Shown: piece by piece, positions 1 to 37,302 of the stretch | How the letters are laid out: each line of letters starts with the position of its first letter | Numbering within the stretch: the first letter of the stretch is position 1 | Source: an uncultured Acidobacteriota bacterium | GTDB lineage: Bacteria > Acidobacteriota > UBA6911 | DNA length: 64,000 nucleotides | Assembly: GCA_963827655.1 (NCBI GenBank) | Contig: CAWHCF010000026.1 | Location: 256,001-320,000, forward strand | Reading direction: 5' to 3' | Notes under the pieces: generated by a model | What the model was told of the DNA's origin: nothing | Seen by the model: only the letters and a program-made list of their open reading frames with translations | Database searches by the model: none | Translations under genes and position numbers: made by a program

Positions 1-499
1 ACTGGGCTCGTAGTAAAAGAACGAGTTGTTCCCCGATACGATCCTTTGTATGGCCTCCTGGAGTGGGACCCGGTAGAGGCTCACCGATACCGGCGGATTT
101 ACCTGGACCGGAACCTCGAAGACCACGCCGGTCTGGGCAGCCAGTTCTTCCAGGACATTGTGAAGGAGGGCATCTCGAATATCAGCCGAGACGTGATTCT
201 CTTCCACGCGGATTTTCATCAGCGGCGTCACTGGAGCCTGGTAAAGGGCGAGCGCGCCGGCAGCCGCCGCTTCCATCGTGAGACCACAGACCAAAAATCC
301 CACCAAGGGAACCAGGCGATTTCTAAGGGTTCGCGCAGGAAATAAGTGCAGCTGCAGCCCCCCCCTGCAGGCCGCAGCCCCGAAGGGGCGCGATCCTCAG
401 CGTGCTTAGCGAACAGAAACCGGTTCATAATTGACCGCCGACTCTTGCGCCAGAATGTGAAGTTATTTTTGCGCGAGCCCTAAGACGAGCCGTTTTCAT
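1..499 (-). pseudogene. Secreted protein with STN/secretin-N-like domain (runs off the window), interrupted at codon 6 by a MITE
   Basis: Removing 327-480 plus one TAA gives MKTARLRNRLVPLVGFLVCGLTMEAAAAGALALYQAP...IRVEENHVSADIRDALLHNVLEELAAQTGVVFEV; ATG at 499 overlaps the STAS stop (ATGA). Confidence 0.65.
327..480. mobile_element. MITE copy 1 (non-autonomous, IS5-family-like ends)
   Basis: TIRs GGGTTCGCGCAGGAAATAA / TTATTTTTGCGCGAGCCC, TAA on both flanks (324-326, 481-483); related copy at 28659-28891. Confidence 0.8.
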
Positions 500-822
500 T
501 CCTTGCCTGTTTCAACCGCATCGACAATTTTCATGAACAGTTGAAAGCGATACATGTCGAAGAGCTCGCGAAGTTTCTGATTGGGATTTATCAGGACCAG
601 ATTTCCCTTTCGATCTCGCATCAGCTTGAAGAGTCTGAGGACTTCTCCTATTCCGGAACTGTCCATGAAGGGGACGTCTTTGAAGTCCAGCACCACTTCA
701 CGCACGCCTTCTTCGAGTAACGAGTCCAGTCGAGTCTGCAGGTCCGGGCAATGCTCAAAAGTAATCTTGTTCTTGATTCGGACGATGCGCCGATCGCCCC
801 GTGATTCAACTTGGATATCCAT
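496..822 (-). CDS. STAS-domain anti-sigma factor antagonist
   Basis: 108 aa with VVLDFKDVPFMDSSGIG motif (phosphorylatable Ser). Confidence 0.9.
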   Translation of the reverse strand: MDIQVESRGDRRIVRIKNKITFEHCPDLQTRLDSLLEEGVREVVLDFKDVPFMDSSGIGEVLRLFKLMRDRKGNLVLINPNQKLRELFDMYRFQLFMKIVDAVETGKE

Positions 823-880
823 AGGCTGTGGTGGAAAATACTGTCACATTTCCCGCGAGGGGGCAAGCACCTCAGTCGCC

Positions 881-1252
881 ATGATTTCAAGGTTCGTCGT
901 CCACCGCCACAAGACCGAGAGATCCCATTTTGACCTCCTTCTGGTGGAAGAGGGCGTCCCGCGCTGCTGGTCTCTTCTCAAGGCACCACCTTCCCGGACT
1001 GGAGAGCACCGGCTGGCGATCGAAAGTGAAAGCTCGCCGGGTGAACAGGAACGCGGGGCTTCGTTGAATAAAGATGCTTTTGGTGAAGGAAAAGTCTACA
1101 TATGGGATGAAGGAGACGTCGAAATAAAGGCCTCGACTCCACGCAAGCTGGTTCTGGTCTTCTCGGGCAAGAAACTTGCCGGCAGTTACGAAATGCTCCG
1201 CATGCTCTGGTACCCAGGGAATCGCTGGTTGCTGCGGAAATCGAGTCTTTGA
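881..1252 (+). CDS. Stand-alone LigD 3'-phosphoesterase-like domain, divergent
   Basis: RFVVHRH..HFD..GV..W...P....RLAI...FGEGKVYIWDEG...FSGKKLAG.Y...WLL matches the LigD_N/PE pattern. Confidence 0.75.
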   Translation: MISRFVVHRHKTERSHFDLLLVEEGVPRCWSLLKAPPSRTGEHRLAIESESSPGEQERGASLNKDAFGEGKVYIWDEGDVEIKASTPRKLVLVFSGKKLAGSYEMLRMLWYPGNRWLLRKSSL

Positions 1253-1574
1253 AATTCCCGGAGTCTTGGAATCACTTCGCCCTTTCGACCAGCCCACTGT
1301 CTGTTCCCCTCAGCACTTTTTACTTTTCACTCTCCACACGGAGGCCATTGTGAGAAGAAAATGGGATTTGGCTTGACAGCAAATCGGAATCTAATAGAAT
1401 TTTTCGCGCAATCTGTCGGGCGTCGCCGAATCGGCGTCCGCCTGTGGCTTCAATTCGCATTCAATTCCCCAGGGAGTCGAAATTGCGCACCGTTTCAGGA
1501 CGAGCTCACTTTTCGCTCTTGCTGAAGGCCACAGCGAACTTCTCAGCGGCCTTTTCGATATCATTTCAGGAGCG

Positions 1575-2603
1575 ATGCCGATGGCTCGTAACATCAACAA
1601 TTGTTGCGGTAATGGCACTCTCCGGCAGTCTTCTGGCTGCGGCTGGCGATTGCAGGTCCCTTGCAGGCGGCGCAGCAGGAGAAACCCTCTCCCACTTCCG
1701 ACTACCAGTACCGGAAGGACTACGCCGAGGTAGAAGAAGGGATCAAGAAAGAGGCGGACCCGCAGAAGCGGGCGGACATGTACCTGGCTTTCATCAAGGC
1801 GCATCCGCAGTCCCGGATGATCCCCCACGTTTCCTCATACTACAGCGAGATCGTCGCAGGCCACGCGAAGGCCGGCGCCTGGCCCAAGGTGGTCTCGATG
1901 AACGAGGCCTTTCTTGCGCTTGTGCCCGATGACAAGGCGGCGACAAGTTCCCTTCTCGCAGCGTACTTTCAGACGCAGAATTTCGCGAAGACTGTGGAGC
2001 TGGGCGAAAAAGTATATGCGGCCACGCCCGATAAAGGCGTGGCTTACATGCTAGCCACATCTTATCTTCAGCTGAAAAACACCGAGAAGTTCGCACCCTA
2101 TGCCGAAAAGACCATCGCGGAATTTCCCATCGACCAGACTTTCGGGCTGGCATTGCCGCTGGCGGGCGTTTATGCCGGAAAGAAAGACCTGGACAAGGCA
2201 GCCGAGTATGCGGGCAAGGTCATGGCTGCGTTTGGAGACAAGGTTCCGCCCGGCCTTCAGGAAAATGCGTGGAATCCAAGCCGAGCGTTTGGTTACGGTC
2301 TGATGGGAGCGAGCGCATACGCGAAGAAAGACTACCCGAAAGCGATCGAAAACTACGAAAGAGCTGCGAAAGCCTCTCCGCAAGCCGAAGAACCCTATTA
2401 CTACATCGGTCTTTCGAAATGGCAGAACAAAGACACGGAAGGAGCCATAGCGTCCCTGGCCAAGGTGGTTGTGCTGAAGAAGGCTCTGGCGCCCAAGGCT
2501 CAGGAATAGTCTCGAAAAACTGTACAAGCCGCTCCACAACGATTCGCTGGACGGCTTGGACCAGGTGCTTGCCAAGGCAAAATCCGAGCTCGGCATCAGT
2601 TAG
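1575..2603 (+). CDS. Secreted TPR-repeat protein (three apparent +1 indels, near 1578, 1645 and 2508)
   Basis: RBS AGGAG; corrected N-terminus MRWLVTSTIVAVMALSG signal peptide; TPR motifs; C-terminus YLEKLYKPLHNDSLDGLDQVLAKAKSELGIS in a shifted frame. Confidence 0.75.
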
Positions 2604-2822
2604 CTCCGAATAAACCGCAAAGGGACTTGCCGGACTCAGGAACTCCCCTCCGAGCCTGAGGAAAATCAGTTGGGTCAGAATCAAACTCTTGTGTTGCGCT
2701 CCCGGAAATGTGCTAGACTTTGACACTATCAGGTGTCGATTTGAATCATCTCCTCTTACATAATCCAACAACGCTATAGTGCCGATCCGGGCACTATAGC
2801 CAAGGACTCCAGGCTAACTAGC

Positions 2823-4130
2823 GTGCCAGACGAAAAGAAAATCTCGATCCAGGAAGCCCTGGATAAAGAAGGCGAACAGCTGCATATCAGCGAGCTGCAA
2901 GCCTTGAATATCAAGGATCTTGCCAAGCTTGGCAAGAAATACAAGCTCACCGATGTCGGAAAGATGAGCAAGCAGGACCTCATCTTTGCCATCCTCCAGG
3001 CACAGGCGGAAAAACACGGGCTCATCTTCTCCGAAGGTGTTCTTGAAGTGCTTCCGGAAGGGTATGGCTTTCTGCGCTCTCCGGACTATAGCTATCTTCC
3101 CGGGCCGGACGACATATACATCTCTCCGTCGCAGATCAGGAAATTCGATCTGCGCACCGGCGACATTGTTTCAGGTCAGATTCGCATGCCGAACGAGGGA
3201 GAGAGGTATCTCGCCCTGGTGAAGGTCGATGCCGTCAACTTCGAGCCTCCCGAGGAAGCGCGTCACCGTATTTTCTATGACAATCTGACGCCGCTGTACC
3301 CGTACGAAAGGATCAGGCTGGAGACCATCAAAGACAATCTTTCCGCGCGGGTCATGGATATCTTCACACCGATCGGAAAAGGTCAGCGCGGGCTGATAGT
3401 GGCGCCCCCGAGAACCGGCAAGACCATGCTCCTGCAGACGCTGGCGAACTCGATCAGCGCGAATCATCCCGAGATCTATCTCATCGTGCTTCTGATCGAC
3501 GAGCGCCCGGAAGAAGTGACCGATATGGAAAGATCGGTCAAGGGAGAGGTCATCAGCTCCACCTTTGACGAACCGGCGACGCGCCACGTTCAGGTGGCCG
3601 AGATCGTCATGGAGAAGGCCAAGCGTCTGGTCGAGCACAAGAAGGACGTCGTCATACTGCTGGATAGCATCACCCGCCTGGCGCGGGCGTACAACACCAT
3701 CGTTCCTTCCAGCGGGAAGGTCCTCTCGGGAGGCGTGGACGCGAACGCCCTGGAAAAACCCAAACGCTTCTTTGGCGCCGCGCGAAAGATCGAGGAGGGG
3801 GGGAGCCTTACCATCATGGCTACGGCGTTGATTGACACCGGAAGCCGAATGGACGACGTAATCTTCGAGGAGTTCAAGGGCACCGGAAACATGGAAATCA
3901 TCCTGGACCGGAAGCTGGTCGACAAGCGCATATTCCCCGCCATCGATATCAATCGCTCCGGGACGCGCAAGGAAGAACTCCTGGTCGAACCCGGCGATCT
4001 GAACAAGATCTGGATCCTGCGCAAAGTCCTGAATCCGCTTTCCATCGATGAAGCCATGGACCTGCTTCTCGATAAACTCCGGAAATCGGATAGCAACGGC
4101 GAGTTTCTCACCGCGCTGAACAAAGGGTAG
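2823..4130 (+). CDS. rho: Transcription termination factor Rho
   Basis: [24 protein letters not shown]-loop, [24 protein letters not shown]. Confidence 0.98.
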
Positions 4131-4289: not shown

Positions 4290-4745
4290 ATGTTGAAAGA
4301 AGGAAACAAAGCACCATCTTTTTCGGTTCTGGACGATCAGGGCAAGACCGTGAACCTGTCGGACTTCGCCGGCAAGAAAGAGGTTGTTCTCTTTTTCTTT
4401 CCCAAGGCGGACACGCCCGGCTGAACCAGGGAGGCTTGCGGGTTCCGCGATGCGAAGCAGGAGATCGAGAAAAGGGGCGCGGCGGTCGTGGGGATCAGCG
4501 CCGACAGTATGGCGGCTCAGAAAAAATTTCGCGACAAGTTCAGTCTCAACATGCCTCTACTCTGCGACACGGAGAAGAAGATAATCGCGGCTTACGGGGT
4601 TTACAAAGAGAAGAACATGTACGGGAAAAAAGTGATGGGGATCGAGCGCACCACCTTCATCATCGGCAAGGACGGAACTATCAGAAAGATTTTCCCGAAA
4701 GTAAAAGTGGACGGACACACGGAAGAGGTCCTGGCGGCTCTTTAA
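4290..4745 (+). CDS. bcp: BCP/PrxQ peroxiredoxin with in-frame TGA at the peroxidatic Cys (putative selenoprotein)
   Basis: RBS GGAGGA; [11 protein letters not shown]...[12 protein letters not shown](4422)-TREACGFRD...[11 protein letters not shown] in one continuous frame, 151 aa. Confidence 0.9.
4434..4458 (+). promoter_or_regulatory. Candidate bacterial SECIS hairpin for bcp
   Basis: GCTT-GCGG[GTT]CCGC-GATGCG-AAGC; loop starts with GT 17 nt after the TGA. Confidence 0.55.
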
Positions 4746-33357: not shown

Positions 33358-33815
33358 GTCCTGCGTCAGGCTCTAGGTTCTACCCGGATTGCGGCTCAGA
33401 CACTTTCCGAATCCTCATGTGGCGACGGGCGATCAGCAAGCGTCGCCGAACCATGATCGGTAGGACTCTAGCCTAACACGCATCTTGTATTGGTCAGAAG
33501 ACAGTTTGCCAGCTGCCCTTCAAAGGGCGAAGGGATTGCAGCAAGGCCTGCGTAGCAGCGAGCGCTGAACCGACGGCCACGCAGCGCCCCTTAAGTGACA
33601 AATACAGATCCATGACCATGAGCTGCGCTTCGCTGCCACGGGGCTAATTTCCGTCGCCCCTCCGGGGCGAGATCGCGAGACCTGATGAGATGCGCGTAAC
33701 GCTAAGAGCAAGCTACCGCACTCCAAGAGCGCCCGCGTCTCAGGGCGGGCAGATTGAATCGGAAGAAACACGCAGGTATAATACTGCGCCACTATAGCTC
33801 GAATGGAGTTTCAGG

Positions 33816-34535
33816 ATGAATCGTTGCTGCCTCGCCTTGTACATTTGCCTGACGATCGGACCGGTTTCACTTCCGGCGCAGCAGAAGACCGCAACCATCG
33901 CATTCGATAGCCTGACGAAGGACTTCGGGTCGGTCGTCGAAGGACAGAATCTCAAGCACGTTTTCAAATTCAGCAATAAAGGGGGCGCTCTCCTTCAAAT
34001 AATCCGGGCTGAAGGTTCCTGAGGGTGCACTGCCACTTTGCTGTCAGCAAAGCAAATCGAACCGGGTAAGACGGGACAGCTTGAGGTAACGGTTCACACC
34101 GAAGGGATTACCTCCAAGGTAACCAAGACGGTAACAGTCACAACCAACGATCCTCGACAACCTCAGGTCATTCTTACTGTGATGGCGACGGTCCGGTCGG
34201 AGTTCACTCTTTCCGAAAACAGAATTTTCTTTGGAAATGTCCCGACAGGAAAAGAAGTTTCGAAAGAGATAGTGATAACCATCGTAGGCGAGCGTCCGCT
34301 CAAACTCTTGAGTGCTGTTTCCACCGATAACAACGTGCGAGTGAAACTCCAGCCTGTCCCCGGCTCAGGTAAAAGTTTCAAGCTGGTGAGCATCCGGAAA
34401 CTGGACGCGAAACCGGGCCATCATTCCGGAAGCATCGTGGTGAGAACTTCCAGTATCTACAAGCCTGAGCTGAAAATCCCCGTCAGTGGCATGATCGCCC
34501 CATTCCAATTGACGATTGATTCGATTTACGATTGA
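33816..34535 (+). CDS. Secreted DUF1573 (Ig-like) protein with in-frame TGA in the S-C-G-C motif (putative selenoprotein)
   Basis: Signal peptide, DFGSVVEGQNLKHVFKFSNKG..LLQI..AEGS-TGA(34020)-GCTA...IEPGKTGQLEV...KTVTVTTNDP; the two ORFs in the track share one frame. Confidence 0.88.
34036..34052 (+). promoter_or_regulatory. Candidate bacterial SECIS hairpin for the DUF1573 gene
   Basis: CTTTGCT[GTC]AGCAAAG perfect 7-bp stem; loop starts with GT 20 nt after the TGA. Confidence 0.65.
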
Positions 34536-34771
34536 CGATTTACGATTGACGATTGAAAAGTCACGGAAGAGAACGTGCGGTCTTGATTGAAGCGACAACC
34601 ATGGAAAGGAGTTCATCGGCTTCCTTCATCAGATCGGCAACCGGCAGCCGATATTCGATTTACGATTGACGATTGAAAAGTCACGGAAGAGAACGTGCGG
34701 TCTTGATCGAAGCGACAACCATGGAAAGGAGTTCATCGGCTTCCTTCATCAGATCGGCAACCGGCAGCCGA
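34509..34771. repeat. 7-mer array (KACGATT) plus a 120-bp-period tandem duplication
   Basis: 34536-34651 equals 34656-34771 except T34588/C34708. Confidence 0.9.
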
Positions 34772-35034
34772 CTCTTGTGTCTCATTTCGTCAAATAACTC
34801 CAGCCAGTAGAGCGATTCGTCGCACTCCTCCTCAACAATCTTCAACTTCGCAATGAAATCGGCGCGCGATCGAGCCCGACATGCAGAACGATAATTTGCT
34901 CCCACCGAGGTCCCTGCACGAACCAGTTGTCCTCCTATTACGTAAGATGCTCCTGAGTTCGGCAATCCTTCGACGAACTGAATGACTCTAATGGCAAATC
35001 TCTTGGTTCGCTTCCTGAACTCGTCAGCATTCAT
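34681..35034 (-). CDS. Four-helix-bundle protein (23S rRNA IVP / bAvd-like family)
   Basis: RTKRFA....QLVRAGTSVGANYRSACRARSRADFIAKLKIVEEECDESLYWLEL. Confidence 0.92.
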   Translation of the reverse strand: MNADEFRKRTKRFAIRVIQFVEGLPNSGASYVIGGQLVRAGTSVGANYRSACRARSRADFIAKLKIVEEECDESLYWLELFDEMRHKSRLPVADLMKEADELLSMVVASIKTARSLP

Positions 35035-35086
35035 CTACCTTCTAACAGTGTGCCTTGAACAATTGCCAACAAAATCTCGGCTTTTA

Positions 35087-35118
35087 AATCGTCAATCGTC
35101 AATCGTAAATCGTCAATC
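35087..35118. repeat. 7-mer array (AATCGTM)x4.5, inverted relative to 34509-34556 and 34656-34676
   Basis: aatcgtc aatcgtc aatcgta aatcgtc aatc. Confidence 0.9.
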
Positions 35119-35119
35119 C

Positions 35120-35602
35120 TTACATAAATGCTTTGATCAGTTCCGTCTGTATGACCTTCAGATTGTTGTGGGCATGGTCGAGTTCCGCAATCTTCGACTC
35201 CAGAGCGCGGATCAGGGCTCGTTTCTCGAGTCCGTTCTTGACTATCATGAGCAGAGCGTCGTTGTCCCAGGGCTTCTCGATGTACTGGTACAGGCCGACT
35301 TCGTTGATTGCTTTGATGGCGTTTTCCTTGTCGGCGTAGCCGGTCAGAAGCACTCGCACGGCTTGAGGCTGGACGTCCTTGAAGACTGTCAGAAAACGTA
35401 TGCCGTCCATTCCCGGCATCAAGTAATCAGTGATTACCAGGTCGATCGTATGGTTCTTGGCGTCCGCAAGAGCTTGTTCCGGAGAGATATGGACGACGAG
35501 ACGATAATCCGTTTGTAACCGGAAGAGGTTGCGCAACGAGGTCGTCACCATTTCCTCGTCGTCCAGGATGAGAACCGTAGGTCGGTAGTTTTGTTCAGCC
35601 AT
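35120..35602 (-). CDS. Response regulator (REC plus short coiled coil)
   Basis: LILDDE, ITDYLMPGMDG, LLTGY, YIEKPW. Confidence 0.92.
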   Translation of the reverse strand: MAEQNYRPTVLILDDEEMVTTSLRNLFRLQTDYRLVVHISPEQALADAKNHTIDLVITDYLMPGMDGIRFLTVFKDVQPQAVRVLLTGYADKENAIKAINEVGLYQYIEKPWDNDALLMIVKNGLEKRALIRALESKIAELDHAHNNLKVIQTELIKAFM

Positions 35603-37302
35603 TCGCCTTCCTTTCCGCGCCTTCCTGTATGGGGAGCACAATGGTGAACGTTGTGCCTCGGCCTGCTTCGCTTTCAAGCTCGATGCGCCCGCCGTGGTCC
35701 TGGATGATCTTCAGGCAAATGGACAGGCCAAGTCCAGTTCCCAGCCCCGCCTGCTTGGTGGTAAAGCCGGGGTCGAAGACCTTGGATTGGAATTCGGGCG
35801 GTATGCCCTTGCCGTTGTCGCTGATCGCTATGCGAACCGTTTCGTCTTCTTCCCAGGTCCGTATGCGGATCTCGCCCTCTCCCTCGATGGCCTGTGAGGC
35901 ATTCACCAGCATGTTCATGAAGACCTGGTTGAGCTGGTTAGGGTAACACTCGATCTCACGCACCGCGCCAAACTCCTTGACCACGTTTATCCGGCGCTTG
36001 AGCTCGTGGGCGACCAGCGTCAGAGTACTTTCGATTCCATCGTGAATATTGACCTTCTTTCGCTCTGCCTCGTCGAGACGAGCGAAGTTGCGAAGGCTCC
36101 GGACGATCTTCACGATGCGCTCGCAGGCCATGCGATTCGTCCGAATGGCATCGTCGACGATTTCGATAATACCTTCCAGCTCTTCGTTTGTGCCTTCCGG
36201 TTTCAGTTGCGACTTGAGGTAAGGCTGAACCTTCTGGAAGGTAAGGGCGAAAATGTCGTTATTGCTGTTAATACTGCCGAGCGGCGTGTTGATCTCATGA
36301 GCCACGCCGGCAACCAGGCTTCCAAGGGCCGCCATCTTTTCGGCTTGTAATAACTGCGCCTGCGACTCCAGAAGGAGCTTATGCTTTTCCGAAAATTTCC
36401 CTTCGAGCGAGCGGGTGTAGCTGGCCAGGTCCGCTTCCATCTTGCGCATCGTGGTCACGTCGCGGCAGATGCGGTGGATCAACTTCTGGCCGGCCGCCTC
36501 CAGGATCGAGCAGCTCACGCTCATGATGATTCGGTTCCCGTCCTTGGTCAGGAAGGGAAGGTCGCCGGTAACGCCACAGCCGCATCGCCTGCTCTACCAG
36601 GTCGGCAAATTCCTTGACCCGATCCATCTCGTCGGGCGGATACAGGTCCCGCTCGTTCATGCTGACGAGCTCCTCGAAGGTGTACCCGGTGATCCTCTCC
36701 GCTTGCAGGTTAGCGTCGAGGATTTCACCCGACGCGGCGTCAAGAGTGAAAATGGCATCGTTGGCAAGATTGAACAGTTCTCGATATCGCAGCTCGGTCT
36801 CGAGTAGCGCCTGGTTGCCTCGTTCGACGCGCTGTTCGAGAACGACGGCGTGTTTGAGCAGCATTTTTTCCGCTTCTTCCAGCCGGCGATTCTTATCTTC
36901 CAGCTCCTGCTGGTAGCGCAGATTCTCCTGCTCGAGCTGCCGTAGTTCGGTCGCGCGCCACACGGAGTTGCGCAGGTGAGCGACGTCGACGGGTTTCGTC
37001 AGGTAGTCCAGCGCCCCGTCGCGCAAGCTCTGGACCGCCAGGTCATGCGTGCTGTGGCCCGTGACAATGATGACGGGAGGCGATCCCGGGCGGCTCTTCA
37101 ATTCCCTCAGGAAAGACATGCCGTCCATCTCAGGCATGTTAAGGTCGCTGACAATGACGTCCGGATCAAAGGACTGTTGGGTTTCGAGGGCTTCGCGGCC
37201 ATTGGCAGCCAGCGCCACCTCGTATCCCAGGTCCTTCAGCGCCTCTCGCACAGTCTGGCGCGAGGCTTCATCATCATCGACAATCAGAACGCGATGAACC
37301 AT
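35595..37302 (-). CDS. Hybrid REC-PAS-histidine kinase (frameshift near 36580)
   Basis: REC (IVDDDE, DLNMPEMDG), PAS, H-box AHEINTPL, N/G boxes DNGKG, GTGLGL. Confidence 0.9.

Follow-up and report, generated by a model that had tools for sequence, protein, structure and literature searches.

In this study, we examined a stretch of 64,000 nucleotides (nt) from an uncultured Acidobacteriota bacterium (contig CAWHCF010000026.1, positions 256,001 to 320,000, hereafter the window), and found that a forward-strand reading frame at 33816-34535, broken once by TGA, is very probably an intact gene whose product is an exported two-domain immunoglobulin (Ig)-like protein of 239 residues, a member of the catalogued DUF1573/OS_HP2 selenoprotein family. 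With similarly high confidence, we propose from comparative sequence evidence that the UGA at 34020-34022 is recoded to selenocysteine (Sec, U) with the help of a stem-loop at 34036-34052. In the proposed mechanism, this stem-loop would act as a Sec insertion sequence (SECIS) inside the coding sequence and recruit SelB with Sec-tRNA(Sec), and the UGA would be decoded as Sec. The DUF1573 selenoprotein type with a U-G-C motif is real but already catalogued, and the window gene is not a new kind. The features on which this reading turns are the following.

33816..34535, forward strand: complete gene of the DUF1573/OS_HP2 selenoprotein type, very probably with Sec at codon 69 (from the single frame, PF07610, NF041425 and orthologues)
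34020..34022, forward strand: predicted Sec codon UGA, U69 (from the column comparison and the contigs of four runs)
34036..34052, forward strand: SECIS-type stem-loop with a 7-bp stem and a GUC apical loop, encoding T-L-L-S-A-K (from its sequence, covariation and occurrence in Sec forms only)

Gene calling with translation table 11 yields two open reading frames (ORFs), 33816-34022 (68 aa) and 34038-34535 (165 aa, with a TTG start), which lie in the same frame with the TGA alone between them. When the sequence and the ORF calls were read again, the two adjacent ORFs of the original prediction, separated only by TGA at codon 69 in AEGS-TGA-GCTA, were indeed there. The 239 codons therefore form one frame with a single in-frame TGA, and the read-through product of 239 aa (...IIRAEGS-U-GCTATLLSAKQ...) ends at a terminal TGA at 34533-34535. 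Residues 28-124 of this product match Pfam DUF1573 (PF07610) over model positions 1-96 of 98 (E 4.9e-25, 87.9 bits against a gathering score of 26.1), with an overlapping match to PF22544, a HYDIN/VesB Ig-like family. The best NCBIfam match, over residues 36-126 and model positions 7-97 of 98, is NF041425, a subfamily_domain model named "OS_HP2 family (seleno)protein". Its score of 95.0 bits, obtained with C in place of U, lies below the curated cut-off of 100 and weighs against the family assignment; among relatives the scores are 101.6 for the Cys orthologue L022, 126.4 for L034, which is of a three-domain Sec paralogue type, and 98.0 for the orthologue L016. Because the score falls just short of the cut-off, we assign the window gene to the family of the literature and not to NF041425.

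The case for recoding rests on comparison, here with close relatives. The protein was used as query against 41 related genomes, its own included, and 25 of them gave a match at E <= 1e-10 (25/40 without the unpublished genome G034, which had none). Twenty loci were fetched for codon comparison and 18 two-domain orthologues were aligned, six distant loci from a single-protein search (Verrucomicrobiia and Bacteroidales metagenome-assembled genomes) being left out. At the Sec column of the motif S/T/G-[U/C]-G-C, TGA was found in 12 of the 20 loci (the window's own, L016-21, L024, L025, L027, L032 and the more distant, 374-aa L034), or 11/19 excluding the window, and TGC in eight (L022, L023, L026, L028-31 and L033). 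Full-length two-domain orthologues are 41-55% identical to the window protein; in all 18, U/C69, G70 and C71 are invariant, and the mature parts have no other Cys.

The stem-loop follows the same division. The sequence (G)CUUUGCU-GUC-AGCAAAG(C) stands at the same place in 11/11 two-domain Sec forms and in 0/7 two-domain Cys forms. LLSAK, the peptide encoded by the stem, is kept in 10/11 two-domain Sec forms, with LLSAR and a compensatory stem change in L027, and varies in the Cys forms. A hairpin found in Sec forms only, with its encoded peptide conserved in Sec forms and free in Cys forms, is the behaviour expected of a SECIS within a coding sequence. Compensatory changes are seen in L027 (U-A to C-G) and in L020 (G-C to A-U), and in L034 the position is occupied by a stem with another sequence, CGACUUU-GAU-AAAGUCG. 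In the alignment of 12 sequences, 94.7% of the cells are paired and three of the eight pairs have changed on both sides, a result reached by 1/500 shuffles; controls with slid partners gave 23-50% pairing.

These data also bear on the alternative that the TGA is a nonsense mutation or marks the boundary between two separate small genes, with no recoding at all. Automatic calling with table 11 does divide the region in two, and the public gene call is a fragment of 158 aa (P0002). However, TGA stands at this column in 11 related loci as well, and in 38 further relatives from the wider phylum described below, the rest having Cys. Furthermore, the upstream piece would consist of a signal peptide and half a beta-sandwich, and the downstream piece would have no signal peptide and would start at a TTG inside the hairpin. 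We regard this alternative as highly improbable.

The window hairpin was found exactly as had been claimed, that is, as a perfect CTTTGCT[GTC]AGCAAAG with its GT-starting loop 20 nt downstream. The stem strands occupy 34036-34042 (CTTTGCT) and 34046-34052 (AGCAAAG), forming seven perfect base pairs around the loop GTC at 34043-34045, and the spacing from UGA to loop is exactly 20 nt (34023-34042). According to the published consensus for bacterial SECIS elements, the loop has 3-9 nt and the upper stem 4-16 bp (PMC13188914, Fig. 2 legend), at least one G, mostly followed by G or U, occupies the first two loop positions, the spacing is 16-37 nt and the minimum free energy is -7.5 kcal/mol or lower (PMC13188914). 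In loop size, stem length, loop sequence and spacing (3 nt, 7 bp, GUC and 20 nt), the window hairpin lies within the limits given there. Its energy depends on the stretch folded: the 52 nt that follow the codon give -10.9 kcal/mol and the bare stem -5.6 kcal/mol, and the passage that gives the limits does not state which stretch was used. No SECIS family of Rfam matched 33700-34700 at E up to 10, which is uninformative since the bacterial SECIS models of Rfam span few families.

The association of TGA with a hairpin extends across the phylum. Of 201 genomes of the phylum searched with NF041425, 90 matched at E <= 1e-15 (89/199 without the unpublished genomes G034 and G063). One TGA within the match of about 95 codons was carried by 40 of the 135 match rows (about 30%), the row of G063 having none. 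Apart from the window and L027, all of these TGA rows, 38 in number, were fetched, and in 38/38 the TGA was the first residue of [G/S/T]-U-G-C and was followed by a stem-loop. With 11/19 related loci and 38/38 phylum relatives sharing TGA at one column with a stem-loop after it, the recurrence that the original prediction had called for was found, and the TGA is not private to this assembly. The stems of the phylum Sec forms have many unrelated sequences across paralogue types; within a genome, the DUF1573 Sec forms belong to several paralogue types, and every type has a SECIS sequence of its own. Only 1/201 sampled genomes contains a six-frame NF041425 match above the cut-off, and the model is thus narrower than the family in this phylum.

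As a control, the best perfect hairpin with a loop starting 11-36 nt after the codon was determined for 46 distinct Sec forms and 35 distinct Cys forms. The median was -9.15 kcal/mol for the Sec forms versus -1.7 for the Cys forms, and hairpins of -6 kcal/mol or better were found in 40/46 Sec forms versus 4/35 Cys forms (p = 2e-11, which is overstated as relatives are not independent). Loop spacing was 16-21 nt in 36 of the 46 distinct Sec forms. Four Sec forms that scored poorly (L108, L114, L116 and L104) have stem mismatches, which are tolerated by RNAfold and penalised by the perfect-hairpin scan. Judged by sequence, the phylum appears to carry many Sec paralogues, with hairpins that separate Sec from Cys forms cleanly.

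A base-calling or assembly error for TGC or TGT would be another explanation of the TGA, and the assembly does contain errors. We therefore compared 33600-36600 with Logan contigs from four studies, namely those of three DNA runs and of one run on an RNA library. The codon is covered by contigs X1 (33751-34275), X2 (33956-34501), X3 (33828-34111) and X15 (33828-34514), and none of these has another letter at 34020-34022 or at 34036-34052, although they differ from the window nearby (34008 G>A; 34031 T>C, synonymous). Reads showing TGC or TGT had been named as grounds for rejecting the prediction; the contigs of the four runs offer no such alternative letter at the codon. In addition, the errors observed in the assembly are indels, not substitutions, and orthologues at 41-55% protein identity share the TGA, so that the chance of an erroneous TGA is practically negligible. 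The RNA-library contig X15 extends without a break across both "ORFs"; its source is a relative of about 95% similarity.

Several observations nevertheless weigh against recoding in the window. The 71-nt fold around the site is not more stable than shuffled sequences (z +1.20; 181/200 shuffles at least as stable), and the bare 7-bp stem contributes just the -5.6 kcal/mol given above. The eighth pair of most orthologues is missing from the window stem, the stem being 8 bp in 9/10 other two-domain Sec orthologues. Thus the case for more than chance rests on the comparison among relatives and not on folding energy. X15 is no proof of transcription, as DNA can occur in such a library, and the selenium in the product is a prediction from sequence. 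Finally, selA of the same genome lies in three frames (141, 352 and 72 aa), and, if this state is real, the cell would be unable to make Sec.

The last point raises the possibility that the Sec trait is decaying, with selA truly frameshifted, the UGA acting as a terminator and the relic gene yielding a fragment of 68 residues. The three selA frames speak for such decay, and the first junction between them lies outside any long homopolymer. The assembly (8.18 Mb, 53 contigs, with the window at G000:C26:256001-320000) otherwise has the machinery. It contains a tRNA-Sec (74.1 bits against a gathering score of 47; ARAGORN call tRNA-SeC(tca)), selB (380 bits, an open frame of 768 aa), selD in Cys form (384 bits, an open frame of 370 aa) and selA, which scores 398.5 bits for its main piece (G000:C23:243631-244996). 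Hence the check on Sec machinery came out in two parts, with tRNA-Sec, selB and selD intact and selA present but split over three frames; a genome lacking the machinery, the third ground named for rejecting the prediction, is not what was found. The essential genes rpoB (G000:C8:77700-81924; frames of 1161 and 392 aa) and rpoC (G000:C8:82147-86155; frames of 573 and 828 aa) are likewise divided between frames in this assembly, and contigs of other runs differ from the window at 36585-36586, within a kinase gene, by an inserted CC or one missing base. Because rpoB and rpoC are also frame-split and the assembly is indel-prone, the selA breaks are most likely assembly indel artefacts, and frame breaks in this assembly should not be taken for pseudogenes without reads. 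The splits in selA, rpoB and rpoC fit the earlier remark that the other disruptions in the window are indels.

The SECIS stem and the 170 codons downstream of the UGA are intact too, as is, apart from its TGA, a second selenoprotein gene of the window, bcp. This gene at 4290-4745 (forward strand) encodes a PrxQ/Bcp peroxiredoxin (AhpC-TSA, 2.2e-40; NCBIfam PRK09437, 153.8 bits, above the cut-off of 140) and is of a known selenoprotein type. Its TGA at 4422-4424 falls on the peroxidatic Cys in D-T-P-G-U-T-R-E-A, which agrees with the earlier claim of a second clean TGA on a conserved Cys. About 20 nt downstream, a short stem capped by a GUU loop is recognisable on visual inspection, but RNAfold does not form it. 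Taken together, decay of the Sec trait seems very improbable, if slightly less so than the absence of recoding, and UGA decoding as Sec stays the preferred reading.

Two further observations concern the genome and its clade. The ORFs for a response regulator with PAS domain (36379-37302, reverse strand) and for HisKA with HATPase (35595-36524, reverse strand) overlap in different frames and look like one hybrid kinase gene, across 35595-37302, broken by an indel. Among the 43 selD matches in the 41 related genomes, 34 carry an in-frame TGA of their own (33/42 without G034), and the whole clade is a heavy Sec user.

The remaining features of the gene concern its start and the architecture of its product.

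33805..33808, forward strand: GGAG, Shine-Dalgarno-like, 7 nt before the ATG (from sequence reading)
33816..33878, forward strand: predicted Sec-pathway signal peptide, residues 1-21, made up of MNR, a hydrophobic core and L-P-A, followed by QQ (from the sequence, orthologues and the model)
33897..34187, forward strand: domain 1, a DUF1573 Ig-like (PapD/ASH-type) beta-sandwich with S-U-G-C, residues 28-124 (from Pfam, the model and the VesB match)
34203..34499, forward strand: domain 2, a second Ig-like beta-sandwich without Cys or Pfam match, residues 130-228 (from the model and structural matches)

GGAG is found at an equal distance from the start codon in most of the orthologues printed, and the window copy is a candidate ribosome-binding site. 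The N-termini of 18/18 aligned orthologues begin K/R-rich, continue with a hydrophobic stretch and have a small residue in front of Q/E/D; the protein is probably exported, the N-terminal signal peptide sending it across the cytoplasmic membrane with cleavage near L-P-A/QQ. The AlphaFold model (mean predicted local distance difference test score, pLDDT, 89.6; predicted template modelling score, pTM, 0.71) consists of a helix at 4-14, a low-confidence linker and two beta-sandwiches at 28-127 and 130-228, with pLDDT above 90 across the domain 1 strands 28-127. In this model strands 60-67 and 71-75 are connected by a turn of three residues (68-70) that contains U69, with C71 as the first residue of the second of these strands. 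U69 and C71 are the sole Cys-type residues of the mature protein. Domain 2 (127-230) is structurally matched by Ig domains of S-layer proteins, filamin and pilus chaperones.

In most known selenoprotein families, Sec takes the place of a redox-active Cys. For this reason, and because of the exchange between Sec and Cys, the lone U-x-C pair in the mature protein and one fusion to cytochrome c, we tentatively suggest, with somewhat less than even confidence, that U69 and C71 in the domain 1 turn may form a reversible selenenylsulfide, that is, an extracytoplasmic redox centre on an Ig-like scaffold. The fusion is found in L033, a Cys form (L033 1477-2211, forward strand, G027:C17) joined to a C-terminal c-type cytochrome domain (Cytochrome_CBB3, 7.3e-12; two CxxCH); it is the only functional hint for the family found here and points toward electron transfer. 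The earlier reading of UxC as the mark of an exported redox or metal-binding protein agrees with the signal peptide, the lone U-x-C pair and this fusion. A search for longer relatives of the domain, that is, fused forms, found none, which is weak evidence. Two points stand against any particular function. The fold is a generic Ig-like sandwich, for which searches gave generic Ig-like, PapD, ASH and HYDIN matches, and the neighbouring genes are uninformative.

The main functional alternative accepts Sec decoding and holds that the U-G-C turn is a soft-metal site, for Cu(I), Hg(II) or similar, of an extracytoplasmic carrier or scavenger. C-x-C motifs bind Cu(I) in other proteins, and the turn offers two adjacent chalcogen ligands, the only ones in the mature protein. 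On the other hand, no copper or mercury family was seen among 92 neighbouring ORFs scanned around 29 relatives and among the window neighbours, there is no conserved His/Met-rich motif (the invariant residues besides C-G-C being G, F, N, L, D, E and S), and the cytochrome c fusion in one relative suits electron transfer better. A metal site is accordingly a possibility of which we are doubtful, and a redox centre at U69 and C71 is the reading we prefer. More broadly, and just as doubtfully, the phylum could make wide use of the exported DUF1573 U-G-C turn as an extracytoplasmic selenol centre, carried by an Ig-like and not a thioredoxin-type scaffold; the chemistry of this centre may be a selenenylsulfide relay to c-type cytochromes or other partners, or the capture of chalcophilic metals. 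If it were a catalytic redox module, it would represent a new structural class of periplasmic oxidoreductase.

In the window, the gene has a PadR regulator as divergent neighbour and a response regulator with a kinase as convergent ones. A convergent response regulator with a histidine kinase is also the only conserved neighbourhood of the two-domain orthologues (6/18 loci), and the neighbours of the 29 phylum relatives are housekeeping genes, e.g. those for NAD kinase, EF-P, FtsJ, Mur ligase and RNase PH. Neither redox genes nor genes for cytochrome maturation or copper turned up among the neighbours scanned for the two-domain orthologues and the 29 phylum relatives. Elsewhere in the window's own genome, a single-domain DUF1573 Cys paralogue (L035 3258-3668, reverse strand, G000:C50; P-G-C-G-C-T; NF041425 98.0 bits) lies about 120 nt upstream of selD (L035 2082-3137), on the same strand. 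A link between DUF1573 and selenium metabolism was considered on this basis and rejected, as adjacency to selD occurs in 1/30 selD loci (1/29 without G034) and was taken as chance. In one other genome, the 3' part of a selA gene (L076 2-592, forward strand, G043:C52) lies about 900 nt from a convergent DUF1573 Cys-form gene, which was likewise taken as chance.

Directly downstream of the selenoprotein gene, a 23S_rRNA_IVP (four-helix-bundle) gene at 34681-35034 (reverse strand) is flanked by inverted arrays of the heptamer ACGATTG/ACGATTT within the region 34528-35120, with eight matches where 0.1 are expected. The region contains a tandem duplication of 120 nt (34529-34648 and 34649-34768). 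The arrays reach a summed depth of 142-3914 (682-3914 in three DNA runs) in soil-metagenome contigs, versus about 2-25 beside them, and the inner sequences to which they are joined there are many and varied. Because orthologous loci have the response-regulator gene about 130 nt after the DUF1573 stop, the element is an insertion, about 500 nt in length. The insertion also took the place of the last codons of the selenoprotein, which ends in ...APFQLTIDSIYD here versus ...AAQQAN in relatives.

The main significance of these results concerns annotation. The public record of the window protein is 158 aa long, and 25 of the 40 matches listed have 156-169 aa and cover 46-67% of the protein; near-full-length records (215-249 aa, 85-95% coverage) account for just 7 of these 40. 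Gene calls truncated in this way lose the signal peptide and the active-site turn. A catalogued DUF1573 selenoprotein is common in this soil phylum (40/135 matches) and exists there in several paralogue types. The set of Sec and Cys forms with hairpins that track them would be useful for training SECIS predictors, and the two-domain form, being small and well modelled, would suit a first biochemical test.

As for proteins of known structure, the best match to domain 1 is the C-terminal Ig domain of Vibrio cholerae VesB (Z 12.0; root-mean-square deviation 1.9 over 97 residues), the Ig domain of VesC has Z 11.7 (structures of VesB and VesC: 4lk4, 6bqm), and PapD-like domains of HYDIN, ASH and MSP are also among the best structural matches. 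All of these have 8-11% identity and no U/C-G-C site, and the shared fold shows no function. The sole solved structure found by sequence is PDB 2qsv from Porphyromonas gingivalis W83 (E 9.4e-5), which likewise has two Ig-like domains and aligns with the model across residues 27-227 (Z 11.7; Foldseek rank 25). It differs in that it has no C-G-C at the aligned place (HMMER alignment) and adds no mechanism. The N-terminal domain of DsbD, which is periplasmic and has an Ig fold, carries a redox-active pair of Cys. Although its Cys spacing differs and it is not among the 50 structural-match rows listed, it may serve by analogy, and not as a sign of membership, as a precedent for an Ig-like extracytoplasmic domain devoted to thiol-disulfide exchange.

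A full-text literature search for DUF1573 gave no function for the family. To our knowledge, the DUF1573/OS_HP2 selenoprotein family is a computational prediction. The original prediction had left undecided whether it had been reported; it has, and with the same motif (PMC1976440, PMC2398784, PMC9312934, PMC13188914). OS_HP2 was one of the selenoprotein families newly described from the Olavius symbiont metagenome (PMC1976440, Table 2; Zhang and Gladyshev 2007), and the 2008 Global Ocean Sampling survey has the entry "OS_HP2, pfam07610, UxC" with the numbers 2, 2 and 354 (PMC2398784), the last of which we read as Cys homologues, the column heads standing outside the passage. In reviews, the entry is "PF07610, UGC" (PMC9312934, PMC13188914). 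The window protein is like OS_HP2 in its PF07610 domain, in Sec as the first residue of U-G-C and in having Cys homologues at the same column. It differs in its setting, as the first descriptions of OS_HP2 were of proteins from deltaproteobacterial symbionts of worms and from marine metagenomes, whereas here the family is represented by a 239-aa two-domain form in a soil genome of Acidobacteriota type.

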